A program made the position numbers and the translations under genes. Source: Nostoc punctiforme PCC 73102 (GTDB lineage: Bacteria > Cyanobacteriota > Cyanobacteriia > Cyanobacteriales > Nostocaceae). Taken from it: a DNA stretch of 32,000 bases. The notes under the pieces were generated by a model. That model searched no databases, was not told where the DNA came from, and saw nothing but the letters and a program-made list of their open reading frames with translations. Positions 7,719-29,551 of the stretch are shown here, in pieces (positions within the stretch are counted from its first letter, which is position 1; the number at the start of each line of letters is the position of its first letter). The DNA is taken from the NCBI RefSeq assembly GCF_000020025.1, contig NC_010628.1:7950001-7982000 (forward strand), written 5' to 3'.

Positions 7719-9641
7719 TTAAGCTAACGCTGGAAACTCTTGCTGGCTATTGATTTTACGCAATTCTAAATATAATAATAAAGCGTTAACATCGGCTGGG
7801 TTTACACCACCAATACGTGCTGCTTGACCAAGAGTGAGTGGTTTTACGTGAGTCAGCTTTTCCCGTGCCTCTTTGGAAAGGGTATCAATTGTTGTATAGT
7901 CCAAATCCGCAGGTAATTGGCGGTGGGCTTGACGGGCAATTTGGTCAATCTGATTTTGTTGCCTAGCGAGATAGCCATAATACTTGATGTCAATTTCTGC
8001 GCCTTCTTTCTCGGCGCGGTTGAGGTTGGGGTTTCCTAGTCCGAACCTGTCGAGGTCAACGTAATGAAATCCCGGACGGCGCAGTAAGTCGTTGAGGGTA
8101 ATTGAACCTTTGATTGCTTGTTGGGTATCAGATGCGATCGCTATTCCCATTTCATCATGTTCTTTGACTCGTGTAGCTTGTAATCTTTGTTTTTCTGTGA
8201 TAATGTTCGCTTGTTTTTGGGTAAATAGATCCCATCTGCGATCGTCAATTAAACCAATTTCTCGTCCCAAGGTTGTCAAACGTTGGTCGGCATTGTCAGA
8301 ACGCAATAATAAGCGGTACTCCGATCTACTGGTGAGCATCCGGTAAGGTTCCCGTAAATCCTTTGTACACAGGTCATCAACTAGTGTTCCAATGTAACTT
8401 TGCTCGCGGGCAAAAACAATCATTTCTTGAGAATGAACAAATCGAGCGGCGTTAATTCCCGCCACCAGTCCTTGGGCTGCGGCTTCTTCATAACCTGTCG
8501 TGCCGTTAATCTGCCCAGCACAAAACAATCCAGCAACCTTTTTCGTCATCAGTGTGGGGTAACACTGAGTTGCAGGTAAATAGTCATATTCCACAGCATA
8601 AGCCGGACGCAGCATTACACATTTTTCTAAACCGGGAAGAGTCCGCAACATTTGTAGTTGCAAATTTTCTGGCAACCCTGTAGAAAAGCCTTGGATATAA
8701 AGTTCGGGTATATCTCGTCCTTCTGGTTCAATAAAGATTTGATGGCTTTCCTTATCAGCAAAGCGCACAATTTTATCTTCAATACTGGGACAATAACGCG
8801 GCCCTTTGGCTTCCACCCAACCGCCATAAACTGGCGACAGGTGCAAATTATCTTGAATTAGGCGATGGGTTTCGGTGGTGGTGCGGGTGATGTAGCAGGG
8901 CATTTGTTCTCGTTCTACCCATGCTTCTGGGTCAAAGCTAAACCAGCGCACATCCTCATCTCCTGGCTGGATGAGCATTTTACTATAATCCACCGATCGC
9001 TTATCTACCCGTGCTGGGGTTCCAGTTTTAAGTCTTCCGGTTTCAAATCCCAGGCGATTTAGGGTTTGTGTCAATCCCTCAGCCGCAAATTCCCCAGCGC
9101 GTCCAGCCGGCATTGATTTGTTGCCAACCCAGATTTTGCCCCCCAGGAAAGTGCCAGTTGTCAAGATGACAGCTTTACATCGGAACCCTACACCAAAATA
9201 AGTTTCAACGCCGATGACTTCATCATTAGCACCCAGCACCAAATCTGTCACCATGCTTTCGCGGATTGTCAAGTTTTCTTGGTTCTCGACAATATTCTTC
9301 ATCACTGCTGCATATTCGCGCTTGTCCGTCTGGGCGCGTAATGCCCAAACAGCAGGCCCCCGTGAAGAGTTGAGGATACGTTTTTGCAGGTAGGTGCGGT
9401 CTGCTACTTTACCGATTTCCCCGCCGAGGGCATCTACCTCATGAGTCAACTGGGATTTTGCCGGGCCACCCACTGCTGGATTACAGGGTTGCCAAGCGAT
9501 TCTATCCAAGTTGAGCGTCAATAACAGGGTACGACAACCGAGGCGTGCAGAGGCAAGAGCCGCTTCGCAACCGGAGTGACCTGCACCGACGACTATGACA
9601 TCAAAAGCGTCTTGGAATTCAACGGAATTGTGCATGGTCAT
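7719..9641 (-). CDS. mnmG: tRNA uridine 5-carboxymethylaminomethyl modification enzyme MnmG (GidA)
   Basis: Unmistakable MnmG sequence ([18 protein letters not shown]..., [27 protein letters not shown]). The ORF-track start at 9731 is a TTG. ATGs at 9641 and 9635 (MTMHNSVEF) fit orthologue N-termini better. Confidence 0.95.
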
Positions 9642-10029
9642 ACTTACAGGATCGGCAAGCTTAGAGTTCTTTTCAATTTTAGCTGTTCCAGTGGTTTCAT
9701 GGATGTAACTTTCTAATAAAAAAGTTATCAAATTTACTAGTACTCAATTCAGAGACAAGTTTCTATTTTTAAACTTGAGTATTCAGTAAAAAATATTATA
9801 TTTTTTAAAGTTTGTGACAATATTCCGGGTTGTTTATCAGAACTATTGTTCACATATTTAGCAATTAGCACGAATTATTTTGTTACTGGCACACATTAGA
9901 TACTTTACATAAATGTATAAACCTATAGCTCGACTCTCATAATTTTTTTGTGGTTTTAACTTATTAATAACAAATGTTTAAGTAAGGCTATTAAATTTAC
10001 TTTTGAATCAACCAAGTAATTATTTTAAA

Positions 10030-10902
10030 ATGAAACTCACTATCAGAAAGCAAAAAGATATTACTAGATTTATTAGAAAAGCAAGTTTCATCAGTATAGT
10101 TATCGGCATTATTTTTGTCTTAGTAGCTAGTAATGAGATTACCCACCACCAATTTGCTAGAACCTCTCAACCATTAAATGTATGCTCTACAACCATTTCA
10201 TCACCTTGTATAGATACCTCTAAAGAAATAACACCCAAACCATTTATTCCCAACCCAGAATTAAATAGTAAACAGCGTTTTTTATCTGCGATTAACCAGA
10301 AATTACCTACAATTCCCCAGTCTGGTACTTATGAATATACTTTACTGCGAGCTTATGGTGCAGTTTTTGTAAATCAAGATATCAGAATTAAACTGCCGCC
10401 AAAAGATATTTTTGTTAATGAACAAGAAACCCAAGAATTTCAAGCTAATTTAACAATGGGTCATGTTGATGGTACTAACGATTGTTATTTACAAAAGTCG
10501 GCGGCTGATGCTCTAAATAAAGCGCGAGTTCAACAACATATCCCGCTAAAATCTGGTTATGGCTCTGGTGATTGTACTCGCACTTTCAATACGAATTTAA
10601 GATTTTGGCAAAAATATGCTAATAATCAAGTTTTGGCAAAAGTTCAACAGGGAAAAGAAACAAAAATTCTCGGTTTAGTTGCACCTCCTGGAACCTCACA
10701 ACATCTCTGGGGATTAGCAATTGATTTACGGGTAGGTAGTAAAGAACAAAGAAAAGCTCTTAATCAAAATGGCTGGTTTCAAACTGTAGAAAATGATGTT
10801 CCACATTGGACTTATGTAGGTTTAACTGAAGATAACTTACCTTTGTTTGGTTTTAATAAACAAGTTGTTAGGGGTATTACTTATTGGATTACACCACTTT
10901 AA
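10030..10902 (+). CDS. M15-family (VanY-like) D-alanyl-D-alanine carboxypeptidase with N-terminal membrane anchor
   Basis: SQHLWGLAIDL (SxHxxGxAxD) and VPHWTY motifs, plus a TM helix (ASFISIVIGIIFVLVA). The ATG at 10030 is preferred over the TTG at 10003. Confidence 0.75.
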   Translation: MKLTIRKQKDITRFIRKASFISIVIGIIFVLVASNEITHHQFARTSQPLNVCSTTISSPCIDTSKEITPKPFIPNPELNSKQRFLSAINQKLPTIPQSGTYEYTLLRAYGAVFVNQDIRIKLPPKDIFVNEQETQEFQANLTMGHVDGTNDCYLQKSAADALNKARVQQHIPLKSGYGSGDCTRTFNTNLRFWQKYANNQVLAKVQQGKETKILGLVAPPGTSQHLWGLAIDLRVGSKEQRKALNQNGWFQTVENDVPHWTYVGLTEDNLPLFGFNKQVVRGITYWITPL

Positions 10903-10975
10903 TTGTTAGATAGTATGAAAATTTGGGAATACTAACCTACAAGATGTATTGTCAGGGTAAGGGATAGTATTTACA

Positions 10976-11779
10976 ATGGGACAGGCTTGGAACAACGTAC
11001 AGAAGCATAGGCAAGCAAAAGGGAAATTTTATGAGTTAATGAGTAAGGCCGATGATGTTATTGTTATTCACTACTCCTGTGAAAGTTTCTACGACAGACC
11101 TGATGGTTCATCACCGAGAATTACTTCTATTGCTGTTCGGAATCTAGAATCTGGTCAGACCACCTCTTTTTCAATTCATCAAGTAGCAGAAAGGAAAGGT
11201 TTTTCAGCAATTGCTTTGGAGCAACATTATGATGAACTCGAAAAACTTATGTTAGATGAATTTTATAATTATGTACGTCGTCATGCCTCTCATATTTGGC
11301 TACACTGGAATATGAGGGATATAAACTACGGTTTTCCAGCAATAGCTCATCGCTACAAGGTTCTTCAAGGCGAACCTGAAGAAATTAGTGAGTCCAAATT
11401 AGTTGATTTATCTCGATTACTTATCGCAATTTACGGTATTAGTTACATACAACATCCTCGATTAAATAGCTTAGTTGAAAAAAACTCTATCACATATAGA
11501 GATTTCTTAGATGGAAAGGGAGAAGCTGATGCTTTTATTAATAAAGAATACGTGAGACTTCATCAATCAACTCTAAGAAAAGTTGATGTTCTCGCCAATA
11601 TAGTTGAGCGTACTGCTAATGGCTCACTCAAGACAAATTCTAGTTCAAAAGATATTTATGGAAATTACTTTACAGCACTTATTGAACTCATCAAAGAAAA
11701 TCCTGTTATAAGTGGAGTGCTAGGACTAATAAGTTTTGTAAGTGCTGTGATTGGAATAATTTCTGTATTTATCAAGTAG
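10976..11779 (+). CDS. hypothetical tail-anchored protein, possible RNase H-like (PolB-exonuclease-like) fold
   Basis: 267-aa ORF with an ATG start and a C-terminal TM helix (ISGVLGLISFVSAVIGIISVFIK). IVIHYSCESF, WLHWNMRDINYGF and VDLSRLL loosely resemble Exo I/II/III-like motifs, with the first Asp replaced. Confidence 0.55.
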   Translation: MGQAWNNVQKHRQAKGKFYELMSKADDVIVIHYSCESFYDRPDGSSPRITSIAVRNLESGQTTSFSIHQVAERKGFSAIALEQHYDELEKLMLDEFYNYVRRHASHIWLHWNMRDINYGFPAIAHRYKVLQGEPEEISESKLVDLSRLLIAIYGISYIQHPRLNSLVEKNSITYRDFLDGKGEADAFINKEYVRLHQSTLRKVDVLANIVERTANGSLKTNSSSKDIYGNYFTALIELIKENPVISGVLGLISFVSAVIGIISVFIK

Positions 11780-11888
11780 CTTTGATGCAACTATAAATCA
11801 ACCAGTTTTAAATAATTTAATTTTTTAATCGCTCGCTATTGGCCTGTTTCCTTCCCTTAAAAATCAATACGGTTCAGTTAAGAAAAAT

Positions 11889-11964
11889 TGTAGGTTGGGT
11901 GAAGCAAAGCGCAACCCAACAAAGCTATGAAAATGTTGGGTTTCGTTCCTCAACTCAACCTACA
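11889..11964. repeat. hairpin repeat (Nostoc-type dispersed repeat)
   Basis: tgtaggttgggtgaagcaaagcgcaacccaac ... atgttgggtttcgttcctcaactcaacctaca: the two halves are imperfectly complementary. Confidence 0.6.
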
Positions 11965-12059
11965 TAACTACATAACTTGCGAGTAATTTGGAAATTGCGA
12001 TCGCTTTATACCTATACCTGCTCCCGAAGCAAAAATAAAAGAGATTGTTATAGCTATAA

Positions 12060-12146
12060 GACTTACGCAAAATATCTCTCAAACTCTAATTTCTCCGTGT
12101 ACTCTGCGCCTCTGTGGTTCGTTATTCCGTAACTCTTGCGTAAGTC
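12060..12146. repeat. 87-bp hairpin element with 11-bp perfect terminal inverted repeats
   Basis: gacttacgcaa (12060-12070) is the exact reverse complement of ttgcgtaagtc (12136-12146). The interior contains ctctgcgcctctgtggttcgtt, a motif also present inverted at about 12200-12225. Confidence 0.6.
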
Positions 12147-12152
12147 CTAAGC

Positions 12153-12263
12153 CAATACGGTTCAGTTAAGGCTAAAACTCTGTTACCAAAGTCATTTTTT
12201 AACGAACCGCCAAGGCGCAGAGAACGCAGAGAGAAGAAAGAGATGCTTAACTGAACTGTATTG
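12153..12263. mobile_element. 111-bp MITE with 18-bp terminal inverted repeats and 10-bp target-site duplication
   Basis: caatacggttcagttaag (12153-12170) versus cttaactgaactgtattg (12246-12263) matches 17/18 as an inverted repeat. Exact agtcctaagc copies flank it at 12143-12152 and 12264-12273. A further solo copy of the terminal repeat lies at 11865-11882. Confidence 0.65.
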
Positions 12264-12555
12264 AGTCCTAAGCTAGTAAAATTTAATAAAATTAATACTG
12301 AAATAAGCTAACTCTTACCTTAAAGAAAGAATTAGAAAATGGCTAAAGGGCAAAAGTAAAAATAGATTCTCATCTTCTTACCTTTGCCTTTTAACCTGAT
12401 TCTGCAATAACTCTAACGCCTTCTTGCAGAGGAATCAATCATACTTTTTCTAAGCCTTAGACGCGAAATGGTTTGTTATCAAATATCGCAACCTAGATGT
12501 AATCAAATAGCTCCTCTGGTTTTAGCAAAATATTAATTGAAAAGTGGATTTAGTA

Positions 12556-12918
12556 TTACTTCACTTCGCTGGGTTCAAACTTTGTCACCTTACCTTTCTT
12601 AATCGCTACAATCACATCGTAGTGAGAACAATAAGCGAATGTGACATTATTAGCTTTGTTATAAAGGTTAACTACATGACCTGCACCACCTACCTGGATA
12701 CCAATTGGTTCTAAGTCAGCAAAAAAGAAACGACGCAGTTGATCGCCACTACCAATTTGACCCTTACTTTTAGTAAGCAAATCTAGTTTCTGCGCTACAG
12801 ACAATTCTTCGGCTGCCGATGCCTGCACTAATGACGGATTGATCGCTTTTAATGGTACGTCCCAAACTGTAAAAAAACCAACTAAAGCAAAACTTGTAAG
12901 TAAGGGTGCGAGTTTCAT
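12556..12918 (-). CDS. hypothetical secreted protein
   Basis: ORF 12556-12960. The internal ATG at 12918 gives MKLAPLLTSFALVGFFTVW..., a signal-peptide-like N-terminus. No family recognised. Confidence 0.5.
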   Translation of the reverse strand: MKLAPLLTSFALVGFFTVWDVPLKAINPSLVQASAAEELSVAQKLDLLTKSKGQIGSGDQLRRFFFADLEPIGIQVGGAGHVVNLYNKANNVTFAYCSHYDVIVAIKKGKVTKFEPSEVK

Positions 12919-13122
12919 TTGTGACTCTCTTTTCTGTTTTATCCTGAACATCCCAAGCATCTCAGGTGGGAGTGAGAACTTATTGAAACTAAACCACTAT
13001 TTTCATGAATTTATCCTTTGAGAAAATTTAGTTGATTCTCAGCACTTTCTCAGGCAATGATGGTAACTCAAACTCACAGCATAATTTAAGTATTTTCTCA
13101 ACAAAACCTCATTCTGAACTAC

Positions 13123-14232
13123 GTGACAGCAACTTATAATGAGCAATGCTTTTGCTTTTATTGCAGTCGTGTTATTGTGACTAGGCCCAAAAGACCACAT
13201 CGCTTAATTCATAGAGTTTCAGGACAAACATATCTCTGGCTAGCAACGCTAATTTTTGCAGCATCTGGCGCAGTTACCCGAAGGCTAACAGAAATCGGTG
13301 CTGAACATTTTATCGGCGAACGTAATCCGATTTCTTTATGTAATGTTTTATTTGTGGGAAACCTTTGCGCCTTGATACTTTTGATCCTCATCTATGGGCG
13401 ACAGTGGAACAAAGCCACTTTGAAGCAACTCTCAAGGACGGATTGGGTCAGTTTAACAGCAGTCGCTATTTTATCGGGAGCGTTAGCCCCTGGCTTAATT
13501 TTCCAGGCACTTTCAGTCACAGGGGTAAATAATGTCATTTTGGTAGGACGTTTGGAACCGCCTCTAACTCTGGCTTTATCAGTCTGGTTGTTGAGGGAAC
13601 GGGTAAATATTTGGGAATTTATCGGAGCGATCGCAGCGTTTGCCGGTGTTATCCTAACTATCATCCTCCAGCCTCCAACAGAAGCCATGATGAATATGGG
13701 AGGTTTCAGTTTAGGCATAGGGGAACTTTTAGCAGCAGTAGGATCTATAGCTGCAACTGCTTCTACAATTATTGGTAAAAAATATCTTTCACAGATCCCT
13801 TTGGGAATCTATAGCATCTTTCGAACTGCACTAGGAACCATAATCTTTTTCTTCATTGCTTTAGTCCTCTATGGCAAAGATCATTTTGCTGATGTCCTCT
13901 CACCGTTCTTATGGCAATGGATGTTTCTCTACGGTGGGTTAATTGTGGTGCTAGGCCAGTCTTTTTTGATTAAAGGCTTGAAAACTTCTACTGTATCTAC
14001 GGCTTCCTTAATTGGCTCATTTGGCCCAATTGTGGGCATCTTAGCAGCCTATTTAATTTTGGGTGAAGCCCCTACCTTACCTCAATATATTGGCGGTAGC
14101 GTGATTTTAGTAGGTATATTTTTGAGCCAAGTTGGTAATTGGCGTAAGACTTCTAGCATTGCATCTGGCAAAGTGAGTTCGATTCCGGCACAGCAACAGG
14201 TAGAAACTGATATGGGATTCAAGGGGCTTTGA
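13123..14232 (+). CDS. DMT-superfamily (EamA-like) transporter
   Basis: 369-aa ORF with about 10 hydrophobic helices in two similar halves, typical of EamA. Only a GTG start is available at 13123, so the true start is uncertain. Confidence 0.75.
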   Translation: MTATYNEQCFCFYCSRVIVTRPKRPHRLIHRVSGQTYLWLATLIFAASGAVTRRLTEIGAEHFIGERNPISLCNVLFVGNLCALILLILIYGRQWNKATLKQLSRTDWVSLTAVAILSGALAPGLIFQALSVTGVNNVILVGRLEPPLTLALSVWLLRERVNIWEFIGAIAAFAGVILTIILQPPTEAMMNMGGFSLGIGELLAAVGSIAATASTIIGKKYLSQIPLGIYSIFRTALGTIIFFFIALVLYGKDHFADVLSPFLWQWMFLYGGLIVVLGQSFLIKGLKTSTVSTASLIGSFGPIVGILAAYLILGEAPTLPQYIGGSVILVGIFLSQVGNWRKTSSIASGKVSSIPAQQQVETDMGFKGL

Positions 14233-25976: not shown

Positions 25977-26076
25977 ATAATAGGGTATAGTATGATCTGT
26001 CAAGTTTAGTGCTAACCAACAAAAGCGCCTGAATAGCGTCTGAAACTAGGATAAGCACAAGTTTGACAGATTTACT

Positions 26077-26161
26077 GGAGAGGTGGCAGAGTGGTCGATT
26101 GCGTCCGACTTGAAATCGGATGAGGCTAAAACCTCCGGGAGTTCGAATCTCCCCCTCTCCG
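26077..26161 (+). tRNA. trnS: tRNA-Ser (anticodon UGA), long variable arm
   Basis: GGAGAGGTGGCAGAGTGGTCGATTGCGTCCGACTTGAAATCGGATGAGGCTAAAACCTCCGGGAGTTCGAATCTCCCCCTCTCCG is 85 nt, with anticodon loop CTTGAAA. No encoded CCA. Confidence 0.9.
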
Positions 26162-26535
26162 TTGAATACTTTGTGAATACTAGCAGCCAATATCATCATG
26201 ATTATATCTTGATGATATTGTTCAGTTGCCAGATGAAACCTAATATTTGACAAGAGCTTTAAATATATAGGTATTTTTTAACACATCTACTGATGCCGGG
26301 TTTTTGGCTGGTGTTACTAAGTATAGAAGGCGATAATAATTGCAAAAGGCTTAAGCTTGACTATATGTTTAGAAGCTTAAGTAATGTAAAGCACCTCACA
26401 CTTAAAAGGTTATTTATAATTTATACAATATAATTGAATTTTCCTATTGATACCAAGCCGCCACAAACAGGCTTTTCTACATATAAGGCAGATAGGAAAT
26501 TTTCAACTTTGTAAAATAAGGTAACAAATTTAAGT

Positions 26536-28545
26536 ATGCAAGAACAAATAAAACCTGGTTTCCACGAACAAGTGCAACGAAAATTATACATATTGACTAA
26601 CGAAGAACAGAAGATTCTTCAGAAATTTGGTAATGAATGGTTTGTAACTAGACTAGATGGTTTGAAAATTGGGGACAGAAGTGAATACAAGTATGCCTTG
26701 ATTAAAGCACCTAGAAATTATCAGGAGCTTTTTAATTTTGAAAGAGAGTTAATCATCATTTTTAGTGATTATGAATCTTTTCAGCCTAGATCAACTGACG
26801 CGATTGATGCTGTTTCAGATCAGCTTCAAGATTTAAGAATAGATAAAATCTGTAGTATTATGTTAAGTAAAGATGATAAAATAGAAGAAAAAATAAGAGA
26901 TATTTTAAAAGAATCTCAAGAATCTCAGGTTATAGTTCCAATATCTTATAGCGAAATCTTAAATAATCACAGTGATTCTTATTTTTTAAGGAATAAATTT
27001 AAAACCAATTTTTATACAAGGGACTTGTTTGATTTTCAATCTCCATTAAAAAAAGATTTATACTTTTTTGGGAGAAGCGATATTATTAATAAAATAGTAA
27101 ATAGACATTTTTCTAATGAAAACTCAGGGCTATTTGGATTACGGAAAACAGGAAAGACTTCTGTAATTTTTGGTATTCAAAGGGCACTAGATAAAATAGG
27201 CGCAAAATCAATTTTGATAAGTTGCGATGATACCAGTTTTCAACAAAGAAGATGGAATAAATGCTTACATTATATAATTGTAGAAATAAATAAAAAATAT
27301 AAATTAAATTTACCATTGCAAGCAGAAGATCAATATACAGAAGAAAATGCTTCTCAAATTTTTGCTGAAGAAATTTGTAAAATATATCATATTTTTCAAG
27401 AAAAAAGTATTTTAATCATATTTGATGAAATCGAACGTATAACTTTTAACATTTCTAGTGTTACACATTGGGAAAAGAAATTTGATTTTATATTTTTCTG
27501 GCAAACATTAAGAGCTAATTTTCAAAAATTAAATAATGTTTTCTCTTATTTAATAGTAGGTACTAACCCAGTCTGTATAGAACAATCAAGTATTTTTGGT
27601 AAAGATAATCCTATTTTTCACTCAATACCAATTGAATACTTGCCAAGATTTGATGTACCACAAACAAGAGATATGGTTAGAAAACTTGGTAGAATTATGG
27701 GATTGCAATTTGAGGAAATAATTTATTCAAAATTAACGGAAGATTATGGTGGACATCCATTTTTAATTAGACAAGTATGTAGTTTAATCCATAGGCTCAA
27801 CAATCAACATCTACCAATTACAGTAGATAGAATTACGTATGATAAGGCTAAAAATGAATTTGATAAAAATTATGCTTCTAAATATATTGAGATGATGGTT
27901 AGTGTCTTAAGCGAATTTTATCCTGACGAGTACGATTTACTAGAATATTTAGCCATTGGCGATCTTAACTTTTTTAATCAATATGCTATTGAGTCCACAG
28001 AATATACTAATCATTTGAAAGGTTATGGAATTATCAGTCAAACTAGAGATGAATATGATTTTAAAATAGATGCAGTCAAACAATATTTAATACAAAAAAA
28101 TAAATATAAAAAGGTTAATACAACCAATGAAGATATGTTAAATGAAATATCTCAAAGAAGAAATGCTTTAGAACCAAAGTTAAGAAAAATAGTGCGTACC
28201 CAGTTAAAGGCAAAATATGGAGAGAACCAAGCAAGAGATAAATTACTACTTTCTTTTGGTAAAGAAGAACAAAAAAAGTATAATCATTTAGCTTATAAAG
28301 ATTTGTTCGATCCTGATAAAGTAAATATATATTTTGAAAATCTAAAAAATATAATTAAAAAAGACTGGTCAACTTTTGAACACATTTTTTCAAGGAAACA
28401 AGAGGAGTTTAATTTGAAAATGGAAGCTATAAATAAGTATAGGGCTGATGCACATGCAAAACAGATGACACCGGATAGAATGGGTCACTTTAGAGACTGT
28501 ATGACATGGATTGAAAACCATGTAAACGATTTTTTAGAAGACTAA
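26536..28545 (+). CDS. P-loop NTPase (STAND/AAA, Arch_ATPase-like) with unknown N-terminal domain and C-terminal HEPN-like module
   Basis: 669-aa ORF. FFGRSDIINKIV...GLFGLRKTGKTSV is Walker A (G201-T208). SILIIFDEIE is Walker B (D297 E298). GGHPFLIRQV is a STAND/ORC-like motif. The C-terminal ...LEPKLRKIV...NIIKKDWSTFEHIF...INKYRADAHAKQMTPDRM... has an R-x3-H dyad, resembling Swt1-type HEPN. Confidence 0.75.
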   Translation: MQEQIKPGFHEQVQRKLYILTNEEQKILQKFGNEWFVTRLDGLKIGDRSEYKYALIKAPRNYQELFNFERELIIIFSDYESFQPRSTDAIDAVSDQLQDLRIDKICSIMLSKDDKIEEKIRDILKESQESQVIVPISYSEILNNHSDSYFLRNKFKTNFYTRDLFDFQSPLKKDLYFFGRSDIINKIVNRHFSNENSGLFGLRKTGKTSVIFGIQRALDKIGAKSILISCDDTSFQQRRWNKCLHYIIVEINKKYKLNLPLQAEDQYTEENASQIFAEEICKIYHIFQEKSILIIFDEIERITFNISSVTHWEKKFDFIFFWQTLRANFQKLNNVFSYLIVGTNPVCIEQSSIFGKDNPIFHSIPIEYLPRFDVPQTRDMVRKLGRIMGLQFEEIIYSKLTEDYGGHPFLIRQVCSLIHRLNNQHLPITVDRITYDKAKNEFDKNYASKYIEMMVSVLSEFYPDEYDLLEYLAIGDLNFFNQYAIESTEYTNHLKGYGIISQTRDEYDFKIDAVKQYLIQKNKYKKVNTTNEDMLNEISQRRNALEPKLRKIVRTQLKAKYGENQARDKLLLSFGKEEQKKYNHLAYKDLFDPDKVNIYFENLKNIIKKDWSTFEHIFSRKQEEFNLKMEAINKYRADAHAKQMTPDRMGHFRDCMTWIENHVNDFLED

Positions 28546-28612
28546 AACTTAACCTCTGTTATTAAATGTGGAATACTTTCTTATAAAGCAAAAAGCATGA
28601 TCGCTCCTCTCT

Positions 28613-28641
28613 CCTTATGCTTGCATCGTGCTAGCATAAGG
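28613..28641. promoter_or_regulatory. palindrome upstream of vapB (candidate antitoxin operator)
   Basis: ccttatgct (28613-28621) is complementary to agcataagg (28633-28641), with an 11-nt spacer and no T-tract. It lies 26 nt upstream of the vapB ATG. Confidence 0.35.
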
Positions 28642-28666
28642 ATAAATCCTGCTTGGAGGTAAAGCG

Positions 28667-28933
28667 ATGGCTACCCTTTATGTAAGAAATTTACCCGATG
28701 ATTTGTATGCAAAGCTGCAAGAGTTAGCGGCATCTGAACACCGTTCCATTAATGCCCAAGTTATAACTCTGTTAGAGCAAGCTTTGAAGACTGAAGCGCA
28801 GCAAGCAGAAGACCAGAAACGGCAGAATGTACTTAAAGTCCTAGAAGAAAGTTGCCAGCGTCGCCGTGTGAATCCAGCAGACTTCGCATTACCTGATAGT
28901 ACTGAAATGATTCGAGAAGACCGCAACAGATGA
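28667..28933 (+). CDS. vapB: RHH antitoxin (FitA/VapB-like)
   Basis: MATLYVRNLPDDLYAKLQELAASEHRSINAQVITLLEQAL is a canonical FitA-like ribbon-helix-helix. ggagg lies 7 nt upstream of the ATG. An ATGA overlap joins it to the next ORF. Confidence 0.8.
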   Translation: MATLYVRNLPDDLYAKLQELAASEHRSINAQVITLLEQALKTEAQQAEDQKRQNVLKVLEESCQRRRVNPADFALPDSTEMIREDRNR

Positions 28934-29387
28934 CCATTCCTCTTAGATGCGTGGTGGATACCAGTGTGTGCATCAAATATTTTATCTCTGATCCACTAAC
29001 CTCCAAAGTTAACCAACTGTTTGATCACCTTGCCAATCCACAGACAGAAATGTTTGTCCCAGACCTTTTTTACATTGAGTGTGCCAACGCCTTATGGAAG
29101 TATGTCCGTGCAAGGATGTACACTGGTGCTGAGGTTCAGGCAGATTTAGCTACTCTCAAAGCTTTTCCCTTGCGTGTTGTCTCTACGGCTGATTTGATGG
29201 CGGATGCAGTTGCGATCGCATTAAATTATGGAATCTCCGCCTACGATGGCTCTATGTAGCACTTTCACAGCAGGCAGGTGCTACTTTGTTGACTCTCGAC
29301 GGTAAGCTGGTGAAAGCTTTAAATGCCTCGTCTTACAGTGTTTCCTCGTTTAATGACTTCGAGATTCCGCCGTTAGAGTCAATGTAG
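28930..29387 (+). pseudogene. vapC: PIN-domain toxin (VapC/FitB-like) with a 1-nt frameshift
   Basis: Frame 1 reads VVDTS (D1), YIECAN (E) and SAYDGSM then TAG at 29257-29259. The -1 frame continues YVALSQQAGATLLTLDGKLVKAL... (D4 in LLTLD) to the TAG at 29385-29387. The join at gat ggc tc- tat gta gca implies one missing base. Confidence 0.75.
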
Positions 29388-29551
29388 AAGCGATCGCTTT
29401 TCCTCACCCCAAAGCATTAGATAAGACTAAACATCTCGATATAAACTCAGAATTGGGAGAATAGAATTTTTCTCACAGATTTATTTAGTTGCAATAAAAT
29501 TAATTTGTACAGGGGATAAACCTGCTATTTTTTAATATTCAATTGTCAAAA

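Follow-up and report, generated by a model that had tools for sequence, protein, structure and literature searches.

STAND nucleoside triphosphatases (NTPases) are the chassis shared by the bacterial Avs and bNACHT systems and by the NLR immunity of animals and plants. To our knowledge, all characterized bacterial STAND immune proteins combine a large C-terminal sensor with an N-terminal effector. Here we analyzed a 32,000-nt stretch of Nostoc punctiforme PCC 73102 (NC_010628.1, 7,950,001-7,982,000, forward strand; hereafter the window), in which a cassette located at the 3′ side of a tRNA-Ser gene carries a sole open reading frame (ORF; 26536-28545, + strand). Its 669-amino acid (aa) product is identical to ACC84722.1/WP_012412658.1 (UniProt B2IYC3), annotated as 'AAA-like domain-containing protein'. 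A first-pass annotation, made from the sequence of the window, had proposed a single-gene defense system in which an ATPase switch controls a HEPN-like RNase tail. This defense reading is supported by the sequence comparisons described below, and phage protection, toxicity and RNase activity are what it predicts for the protein. We favor, with moderate confidence, the interpretation that the cassette is a horizontally acquired single gene in a hypervariable defense hotspot of Nostoc genomes, and that its product is a stand-alone immune-type switch.

The closest described systems are the Avs (AVAST) and bNACHT proteins. Like them, the members of the window family are single polypeptides with a central STAND NTPase, a helical domain and a winged helix, they have modular effectors (TIR, nuclease, HEPN and others), and they are horizontally mobile and found in defense hotspots. 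Foldseek placed the core of the window family beside both Avs3 and Avs4, and the TIR-NLR validated in the P4 hotspot matches AAA_35, as do members of the window family. In Avs and bNACHT proteins, however, the effector is N-terminal, whereas in the window family the order is inverted, the effector being C-terminal and short (~140 aa after the winged helix). Furthermore, the window family lacks a TPR, WD40 or LRR sensor, which would span 400 aa or more, and has a conserved 145-aa N-terminal alpha/beta domain in its place. The layout that defines Avs (N-terminal effector, central STAND, large C-terminal repeat sensor) is absent from the window protein, and the PADLOC Avs models gave no match to it at E values up to 1. 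The 2026 STAND census covered only C-terminal sensors of at least 400 aa. The window family represents a new architecture among the known STAND-effector proteins, with a C-terminal effector, a small conserved N-domain and no repeat sensor.

Fusions of HEPN and STAND modules were described computationally in 2013, among them Npun_F6454 and a Bacillus cereus HEPN-STAND-CSD protein (Anantharaman et al., PMC3710099). Npun_F6454 comes from N. punctiforme and may be the gene analyzed here. Like these Swt1/Abi2-clade proteins, the window family joins a probable Swt1-like HEPN module to a STAND ATPase, has a cold-shock domain (CSD) in some members, an association also reported for the HEPN-STAND proteins (PMC3710099), and carries an Ex3[KR] motif and an R/H pair at the end of the penultimate helix. 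In the Swt1/Abi2-clade proteins, however, the HEPN domain is N-terminal and precedes the STAND module, whereas the HEPN-like module of the window family is C-terminal. The published HEPN motif is Rx4-6H, located where helix 3 terminates and extending into the H3-H4 loop, its R being followed by a polar residue (PMC3710099); the window family has Rx3H instead, and on Pfam only its consensus comes up to the cut-off, without passing it. The closest structural match of the NTPase-helical-winged-helix core is PABY2304 of Pyrococcus abyssi (2qen; ATPase_2/Arch_ATPase and AAA_35), and family members match PF01637 and PF14516. Those proteins, however, are ~350 aa long and consist of the core only, without N-domain and effector tail, and have no known defense role. 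The pSlfn and Shedu proteins are also alike in that one protein joins a constant module to interchangeable partner domains, and one branch of the window family has a SLFN_AlbA_2 tail; in them, however, the nuclease is constant and the sensors vary, whereas in the window family the chassis of putative sensor and NTPase is constant and the effector varies. Bacterial Schlafens are described in the literature as phage-activated tRNases. A literature search with the family, the AAA_35 label and the accessions found no description of the window family, and PADLOC v2 has no model for it. Since the family is missing from the defense-system libraries scanned, its members are annotated only as 'AAA-like' or 'hypothetical'.

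Protein architecture and the C-terminal effector slot

An AlphaFold2 model of the protein, built with 73 homologues, had a predicted local distance difference test score (pLDDT) of 89 and a predicted TM-score (pTM) of 0.73. The P-loop NTPase core (residues 181-372; 27076-27651, + strand), delimited by sequence motifs and Foldseek, contains a Walker A motif (GLRKTGKTS, residues 201-209; 27136-27162), a Walker B motif (LIIFDE, 293-298; 27412-27429) and a sensor-1-like GTN (27559-27567). Residues G201, G206, K207, T208, S209, F296, D297 and E298 are invariant in the 73 homologues. The core is followed by a helical GxP domain (373-430) and a winged helix (431-521; both within 27652-28098, + strand), as judged from the model and from conservation; the model has helices at 374-421, and then a helical bundle with a beta-hairpin at 432-509. 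In the GGHPF motif (405-409; 27748-27762) G405, G406, H407 and P408 are invariant, and the near-invariant H493 (TNHL, 28006-28017), which sits in the winged helix, may be the equivalent of the histidine of the STAND 'MHD' motif. The Walker A, Walker B, GGHPF and KYRADAH motifs had all been recognized in the first-pass annotation; they lie where it had placed them and are invariant or nearly so across the homologues.

When the model was compared with the PDB by Foldseek, the top match was 2qen, of the Arch_ATPase type (E 7e-8, TMt 0.69), Avs3 (8dgc_B, E 6e-7) and Avs4 (8dgf_B, E 4e-5) were also found, and the generic AAA+ proteins RuvB, ORC and RFC matched at E 1e-5 to 1e-4. The full-length search returned the NTPase core only and was uninformative on the terminal domains, and a full-length scan of PDB sequences with the window protein gave nothing significant. 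The window protein is below threshold on all Pfam NTPase families (13.9 bits on nSTAND6, cut-off 27.7); among its relatives, P0229 scored 35.9 on AAA_35 (cut-off 27) and P0243 scored 33.9 on AAA_16 (cut-off 32.6), both above threshold. Walker A and B motifs, an invariant GxP in a helical domain, a winged helix and the structural likeness of the core are all present, and on these motifs and this model the core can be assigned to the STAND class, in agreement with the STAND/Arch_ATPase call made earlier.

The N-terminal alpha/beta domain (residues 1-145; 26536-26970, + strand), delimited from the secondary structure of the AlphaFold2 model, is kept in all effector variants of the family. Among the 73 homologues R85 and R101 are invariant, and D88, D113 and E71 nearly so. 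The first-pass annotation had left this region unassigned, and it stayed so in a PDB profile search, in Pfam scans of each member and in consensus scans, all of which were empty; no match to nuclease or toxin families was found either. Assignment as a PD-(D/E)xK or TOPRIM domain was considered and rejected, because the conserved acidic residues do not fit the predicted strand and helix positions. The domain is a putative sensor or regulatory module. It is connected to the core by a linker (residues 146-180; 26971-27075, + strand), which is the most conserved segment of the protein (mean pairwise identity 0.72), with N153, R162, L164 and Y176-R180 invariant. In members of ~1,040 aa (P0138, P0153 and P0170) a CSD and an OST-HTH/LOTUS domain are located ahead of the N-domain, which hints at RNA sensing.

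The C-terminal module (residues 531-669, ~140 aa; 28126-28542, + strand), modeled by itself with a pLDDT of 93, is all-alpha and comprises four long helices and, as an insert, a short helical segment. It carries an Ex3R motif (E546-PKL-R550; 28171-28185) and, at the end of the penultimate helix, an NxxRx3H motif (NKYRADAH, residues 633-640; 28432-28455). In the homologue alignment E546 is invariant and R550 nearly so, and R636 and H640 are invariant or nearly invariant. Ex3[KR] was observed in 175/191 family members; the R/H spacing is Rx3H in ~170 members and Rx4H in ~13, through a one-residue insertion, and the divergent relative P0197 carries FRNRIAHH. Hence, the second, acidic motif of HEPN domains is present in the window protein, and the R/H motif is in the right position, although shorter than Rx4-6H. 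The first-pass annotation had called its HEPN assignment tentative on account of this spacing, a caution that holds for most members. On PF18731 (HEPN_Swt1) the isolated domain of the window protein scored 19.0 bits (E 0.0018, profile positions 5-107/115) and the family consensus 27.4 bits (E 4.4e-6, profile positions 6-102/115), against a curated cut-off of 27.5. The same family was matched independently by 13/47 members (best E 3.3e-5), and no other family recurred. A profile of the C-domain run against PDB sequences gave noise only, e.g., PF0246 and 14-3-3. The module is a probable Swt1-like HEPN domain and the predicted RNase effector; it is graded as probable only, because a Foldseek search with this confident domain model gave no significant match.

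Relatives that keep the N-domain and the NTPase have other tails at the same position. Four representatives end in TIR_2 (E down to 6e-17), two end in SLFN_AlbA_2 (9e-14), and eight carry a second helical module with a canonical YRHxxxH or FRNYYQH motif. Because TIR and Schlafen domains, which are established defense effectors, replace the tail in relatives, the C-terminal position can be regarded as an effector slot. The HEPN-like effector C-terminus of the earlier proposal gained support from this exchange and from the score of the consensus on HEPN_Swt1, and found no counterpart in the structure search. In addition, P0254 and P0260 have glycine-rich hydrophobic C-terminal tails without a Pfam match, which may be membrane-disrupting effectors.

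The tRNA-Ser/vapBC interval of Nostoc genomes

The orthologous locus was taken from 80 Nostoc-group species genomes, with the flanking phosphoesterase gene as anchor. The order phosphoesterase, tRNA-Ser (99-100% identical in all 80 loci), RHH/PIN pair (vapBC) and 4HBT thioesterase is conserved. The distance between tRNA-Ser and vapB, by contrast with these flanks, varies from 491 bp to 8.2 kb, and ORF clustering identified at least 25 different cassettes in this interval. The cargo includes DruA (Druantia, E 1e-96) with a HerA-like ATPase (4 genomes), NACHT-NCH2 STAND proteins (11 genomes), a KAP NTPase pair (12 genomes), a HNH-ResIII helicase with a Mrr_N-like protein (4 genomes), an AAA_15/AAA_21 ATPase (3 genomes) and, further, GmrSD-HNH, a second HerA pair, a Ser/Thr kinase and an AIG1 GTPase. 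PADLOC models added cytosine methyltransferases, mad8 and HerA to this list. Conserved flanks, variable content and known defense systems in relatives, i.e., the marks of a defense hotspot, were all found at the window locus, and the tRNA-Ser/vapBC interval is a hypervariable defense hotspot of Nostoc genomes. Some large proteins of the interval have no Pfam match: a 688-aa partner of the KAP NTPase (12 genomes), a pair of 378 and 255 aa (9 genomes), and proteins of 410, 426 and 723 aa located beside HerA or DruA. These could be new defense components.

The ATPase cassette was found at this site in only 2/80 other Nostoc genomes, with a nucleotide identity of 89% (locus L019) and 92% (L063, which is also locus L001). 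The ratio of non-synonymous to synonymous substitution rates (dN/dS) was 0.08-0.14 across the three Nostoc copies; the ATPase gene is under purifying selection and functional. Elsewhere, split or truncated copies were observed in Komarekiella atlantica (338 aa), Nostoc flagelliforme CCNUN1 (354+324 aa) and Nostoc sp. SerVER01 (290+348 aa), and therefore the gene decays in some lineages.

The left anchor of the hotspot, the conserved tRNA-Ser gene (anticodon UGA; 26076-26162, + strand), was identified by ARAGORN and by Rfam RF00005 (59.9 bits). It is followed by a non-coding leader of 373 bp (26163-26535, + strand; GC content 0.31), so that the one long ORF and the leader of ~370 bp reported in the first-pass annotation were both recovered. 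That annotation had the segment (26162-28579) start at the base after the tRNA. The tRNA does end at 26162, but the junction alignment showed that the first 6 nt of the leader, TTGAAT, are common to all relatives, and that the loci diverge beyond them. The left junction is therefore at 26168/26169, the cassette-specific sequence beginning at ~26169. At the other side, an alignment with L029, L035, L044, L063 and L074 showed that the conserved, vapB-proximal backbone resumes at ~28598-28605, with a degenerate HIP1 (ATGATCGC), and the right junction (28598-28605) is thus ~20 bp beyond 28579. No integrase is present in the cassette. In most Nostoc genomes a module of a small antitoxin and a ParE-type toxin lies directly 3′ of the tRNA-Ser gene (L001 9269-9751, and also L013, L029, L035 and L044), so that in most strains the hotspot is flanked by two toxin-antitoxin (TA) modules. 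Because this ParE-type module is missing in N. punctiforme, the cassette is not a simple insertion at the tRNA, but replaced sequence there.

The cassette is bordered by the two copies of a 12-nt near-repeat (26161-26172 and 28568-28579; a direct repeat of 9-12 nt). Its interpretation as an att-type or target-site repeat was rejected: the same 10-mer recurs inside the ORF, which makes the repeat compatible with chance, its copy in L019 is degenerate, and the backbone next to the tRNA has not been displaced but is absent. In the leader, promoter-like sites were at chance level, and neither a terminator nor an Rfam match was found. A repeat search detected a near-perfect inverted repeat just 3′ of the tRNA-Ser gene (26188-26220; 15-nt arms, 3-nt loop). 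This hairpin is kept in L019, and also in L034, where no more than the first 80 nt of the cassette are present; it could be a recombination or termination signal.

The segment was described at the outset as strikingly AT-rich, which the full count confirmed: the GC content is 0.281 across 26163-28579 and 0.413 in the remaining window, and this islet is the lowest-GC 2.4-kb stretch within the whole 32 kb. The spot counts given earlier were also reproduced: the islet contains lines of 10/60 and of 16/60 G+C, and within the phosphoesterase gene the highest value of a line is 38/60. The lack of HIP1 fared differently. The octamer GCGATCGC occurs 21 times in the window, 0.12 copies being expected by chance, and a whole-window scan found none between 25954 and 29211, as had been claimed for the islet. 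At the density of the window, however, only 1.6 copies are expected in the islet (P(0) ~0.20), and the window has three HIP1-free gaps in other places that are larger. The absence of HIP1 therefore adds almost nothing beyond the GC content, and it was dropped as a sign of foreignness for being statistically empty.

At the right flank, vapB (RHH; 28667-28933) and vapC (PIN; 28930 onward) were identified with Pfam (FitA-like_RHH and PIN; 28667-29388, + strand). Nearly all of the 80 Nostoc loci contain the vapBC pair irrespective of the cargo, and the pair is therefore backbone, outside the cassette. Compared with its L063 orthologue, vapC of the window (28930-29388) lacks 1 bp near 29252, and its product is truncated to 109 aa, vs 152 aa in L001. 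The 109-aa product is also given by independent read-level N. punctiforme assemblies, and hence vapC is a real pseudogene; vapB is intact.

Distribution and genomic settings of the family

A homologue search returned 2,633 clusters at E ≤ 1e-3, nearly all of ~667 aa and 50-56% identical, and an exhaustive search gave 1,621 representatives at 50% identity. Hosts include Paenibacillus, Bacteroides, Chloroflexi, Methylobacter, Flavobacterium, Victivallaceae and cyanobacteria, so that the family spans at least five phyla (Firmicutes, Bacteroidota, Chloroflexi, Proteobacteria and Cyanobacteria). At each of the 12 further loci examined, the GC content of the gene was 0.28-0.33, and that of the flanks 0.35-0.52. 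Copies with the native GC content of their hosts, which the first-pass annotation had named as evidence against its proposal, were not seen among them. The gene, AT-richer than its host in every locus examined, is horizontally acquired and mobile, and its description as a foreign, strain-variable islet agrees with its presence in few of the Nostoc loci and with a gene GC content that stays low whatever that of the host.

The gene was also described as a lone one, and no recurring partner was found in ~12 chromosomal or plasmid contexts and 14 prophage contexts. In a Bacteroides mobilizable element it lies directly after two tyrosine integrases, and in Planktothrix and Methylobacter it is inside TA-rich islets. 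About 16 Klebsiella IncF plasmids carry a homologue at 38% identity (Klebsiella protein WP_094716518), and 14 IMG/VR contigs carry the gene with typical temperate-phage genes as neighbors. The Klebsiella-type gene is present in 5/5,426 complete E. coli genomes. In E. coli KL53 the order is tRNA-Sec, integrase, family gene, psu, delta, icd and primase, i.e., the homologue occupies the int-psu interval of a P4-like satellite. This interval is a reservoir of anti-phage systems (Rousset et al. 2022). In Table S1A of that study the KL53 homologue, WP_021563882, is entered as single-gene 'AAA_35' hotspot cargo, and since the 'AAA_35' label is absent from the table of tested systems, this protein was catalogued only. 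Two further arrangements were observed. The TIR-tailed variant P0152 begins 7 bp after the gene of a 1,055-aa ResIII-domain protein on the same strand (L110 211-5466), and the two are possibly a two-gene variant of the system. Uma2-family endonuclease genes adjoin or flank the gene in two cyanobacteria, Planktothrix (L088 12851-14065) and the host of a Schlafen variant (L111 6957-7514 and 10430-10999).

Proposed mechanism and competing explanations

In the mechanism that we propose, the N-domain and the linker, as a putative sensor or autoinhibitory module, would hold the STAND NTPase off until an infection cue is perceived. Upon this cue nucleotide would be bound or exchanged and the protein would oligomerize, which would juxtapose the C-terminal Swt1-like HEPN modules and form an active, metal-independent RNase. 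Degradation of RNA would then stop the infected cell, through abortive infection or an arrest of growth. The kind of trigger, the oligomerization, the activation of a HEPN dimer, the RNase activity and the abortive outcome are all inferred here by analogy with STAND immune proteins and HEPN RNases. The lack of a hypervariable domain, together with the CSD and LOTUS domains of some members, suggests that the trigger would be conserved and possibly of an RNA type, and not a phage protein that evolves fast. A broader proposal, which we regard as tentative and rather doubtful, is that the family forms a distinct compact class of STAND immune receptors, in which a small conserved N-domain and an ultra-conserved linker, in place of a large repeat domain, sense a conserved cue (a species of RNA, a nucleotide signal or some factor of the host) and not a phage structural protein, and drive interchangeable C-terminal effectors (an atypical Rx3H Swt1-like HEPN, TIR, Schlafen, a second HEPN-like module or a membrane-type tail). 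The family is widespread, being found on Klebsiella plasmids, in E. coli P4 satellites and in gut Bacteroides elements. Members occur both in E. coli and in PCC 73102, a genetically tractable strain. Were it validated, the family would enter the defense catalogues as a common single-gene system and would show how a minimal STAND switch senses infection, and its Rx3H motif could extend the accepted spacing of the HEPN active site.

Several observations weigh against the interpretation of the cassette as a defense switch with an RNase tail. R636-ADA-H640 is outside the published Rx4-6H range, and the residue after the R is usually alanine, not a polar one. The Ex3R motif is part of the first long helix, but the acidic residue belongs to helix 2 according to the 2013 survey. 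A Foldseek search with the C-domain model against PDB and BFVD returned no HEPN structure (best E 1.1), the HEPN protein 4nqf being matched at E 3.8 with a TM-score of 0.29. The full-length window protein had no significant match in Pfam, PADLOC or NCBIfam. Characterized Avs proteins have fast-evolving sensors, whereas no hypervariable domain exists in the window family, the pairwise identity being 0.47-0.72 across all domains. As to the setting, the copies of Paenibacillus, Flavobacterium and two other genomes stand alone amid metabolic genes, with neither defense nor mobile genes beside them, about one third of the chromosomal contexts show no defense or mobile neighbors, and no copy was found among 50,697 deposited phage genomes. 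Hence, the defense-island context invoked for the gene at first stands for the Nostoc slot with its cargo and for the P4 int-psu homologue, and does not extend to that third of the chromosomal contexts.

Some of these observations bear on an alternative that we consider unlikely, namely that the protein is a defense protein whose C-terminal helical module is non-catalytic, with an oligomerization, regulatory or ligand-binding role, and that killing occurs via the N-domain or via NTP depletion. The irregular R/H motif, the failure of Foldseek to find a HEPN fold and a score of the window protein on PF18731 that is under the cut-off would all be accounted for; some Swt1-clade HEPN domains are inactive RNA binders (PMC3710099), and R85, R101, D88, D113 and E71 of the N-domain could form an active or binding site. 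However, bona fide effectors (TIR, Schlafen, the RNxxxH tail) occupy the same position in relatives, and R636, H640, E546 and R550 are invariant or nearly so, which is the pattern expected of catalytic residues. Furthermore, the N-domain matches no nuclease or toxin family, and it is constant across the effector variants, as expected of a chassis.

The genomic settings bear on a second alternative, to which we give slightly less weight still. The gene might have no anti-phage role, and instead serve a selfish or accessory function of mobile elements (addiction, exclusion, a satellite, plasmid or prophage regulator, or a stress-response ATPase), hitch-hiking in variable regions. It would explain why homologues are found on conjugative plasmids beside replication and partition genes, in a P4-like satellite, in prophages and in a Bacteroides mobilizable element, and why several chromosomal copies are without defense neighbors; that no PADLOC model matches and that the P4 hotspot study (Rousset et al. 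2022) lists the protein without having validated it also fit. Nevertheless, both the P4 int-psu interval and the Nostoc slot are filled overwhelmingly by defense systems, a STAND NTPase with a TIR, Schlafen or HEPN tail is an immune-effector signature, and across the contexts no link to a specific transposase, relaxase or replication gene was observed. Moreover, addiction and anti-phage abortive infection are not mutually exclusive.

That the ATPase acts in a multi-gene system with its neighbors, e.g., the adjacent vapBC pair, is very improbable: TA neighbors are frequent (vapBC here, ParE in L001 and Planktothrix, and ParE, BrnT and MNT-HEPN in Methylobacter), the TIR variant starts only 7 bp after the ResIII gene and one E. 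coli locus is entered as 'AAA_35 + hypothetical' (Rousset et al. 2022, Table S1A), but vapBC belongs to the Nostoc backbone whatever the cargo, vapC is frameshifted in PCC 73102 while the ATPase gene is under purifying selection, and the type of the neighboring TA module differs from genome to genome, several contexts having none.

Two minor features of the window lie outside the cassette. A near-perfect palindrome, TCCTTATGCTTGCA tcg TGCTAGCATAAGGA (28612-28642), is located ~25 bp upstream of vapB in the backbone that is conserved in Nostoc, and is plausibly a putative operator of VapB (RHH). Finally, other stretches of low GC content (0.29-0.38) were found at 401-1200 and at 9601-13200, the latter including the ORFs 10003-10902 and 10976-11779, and these may be further acquired segments.

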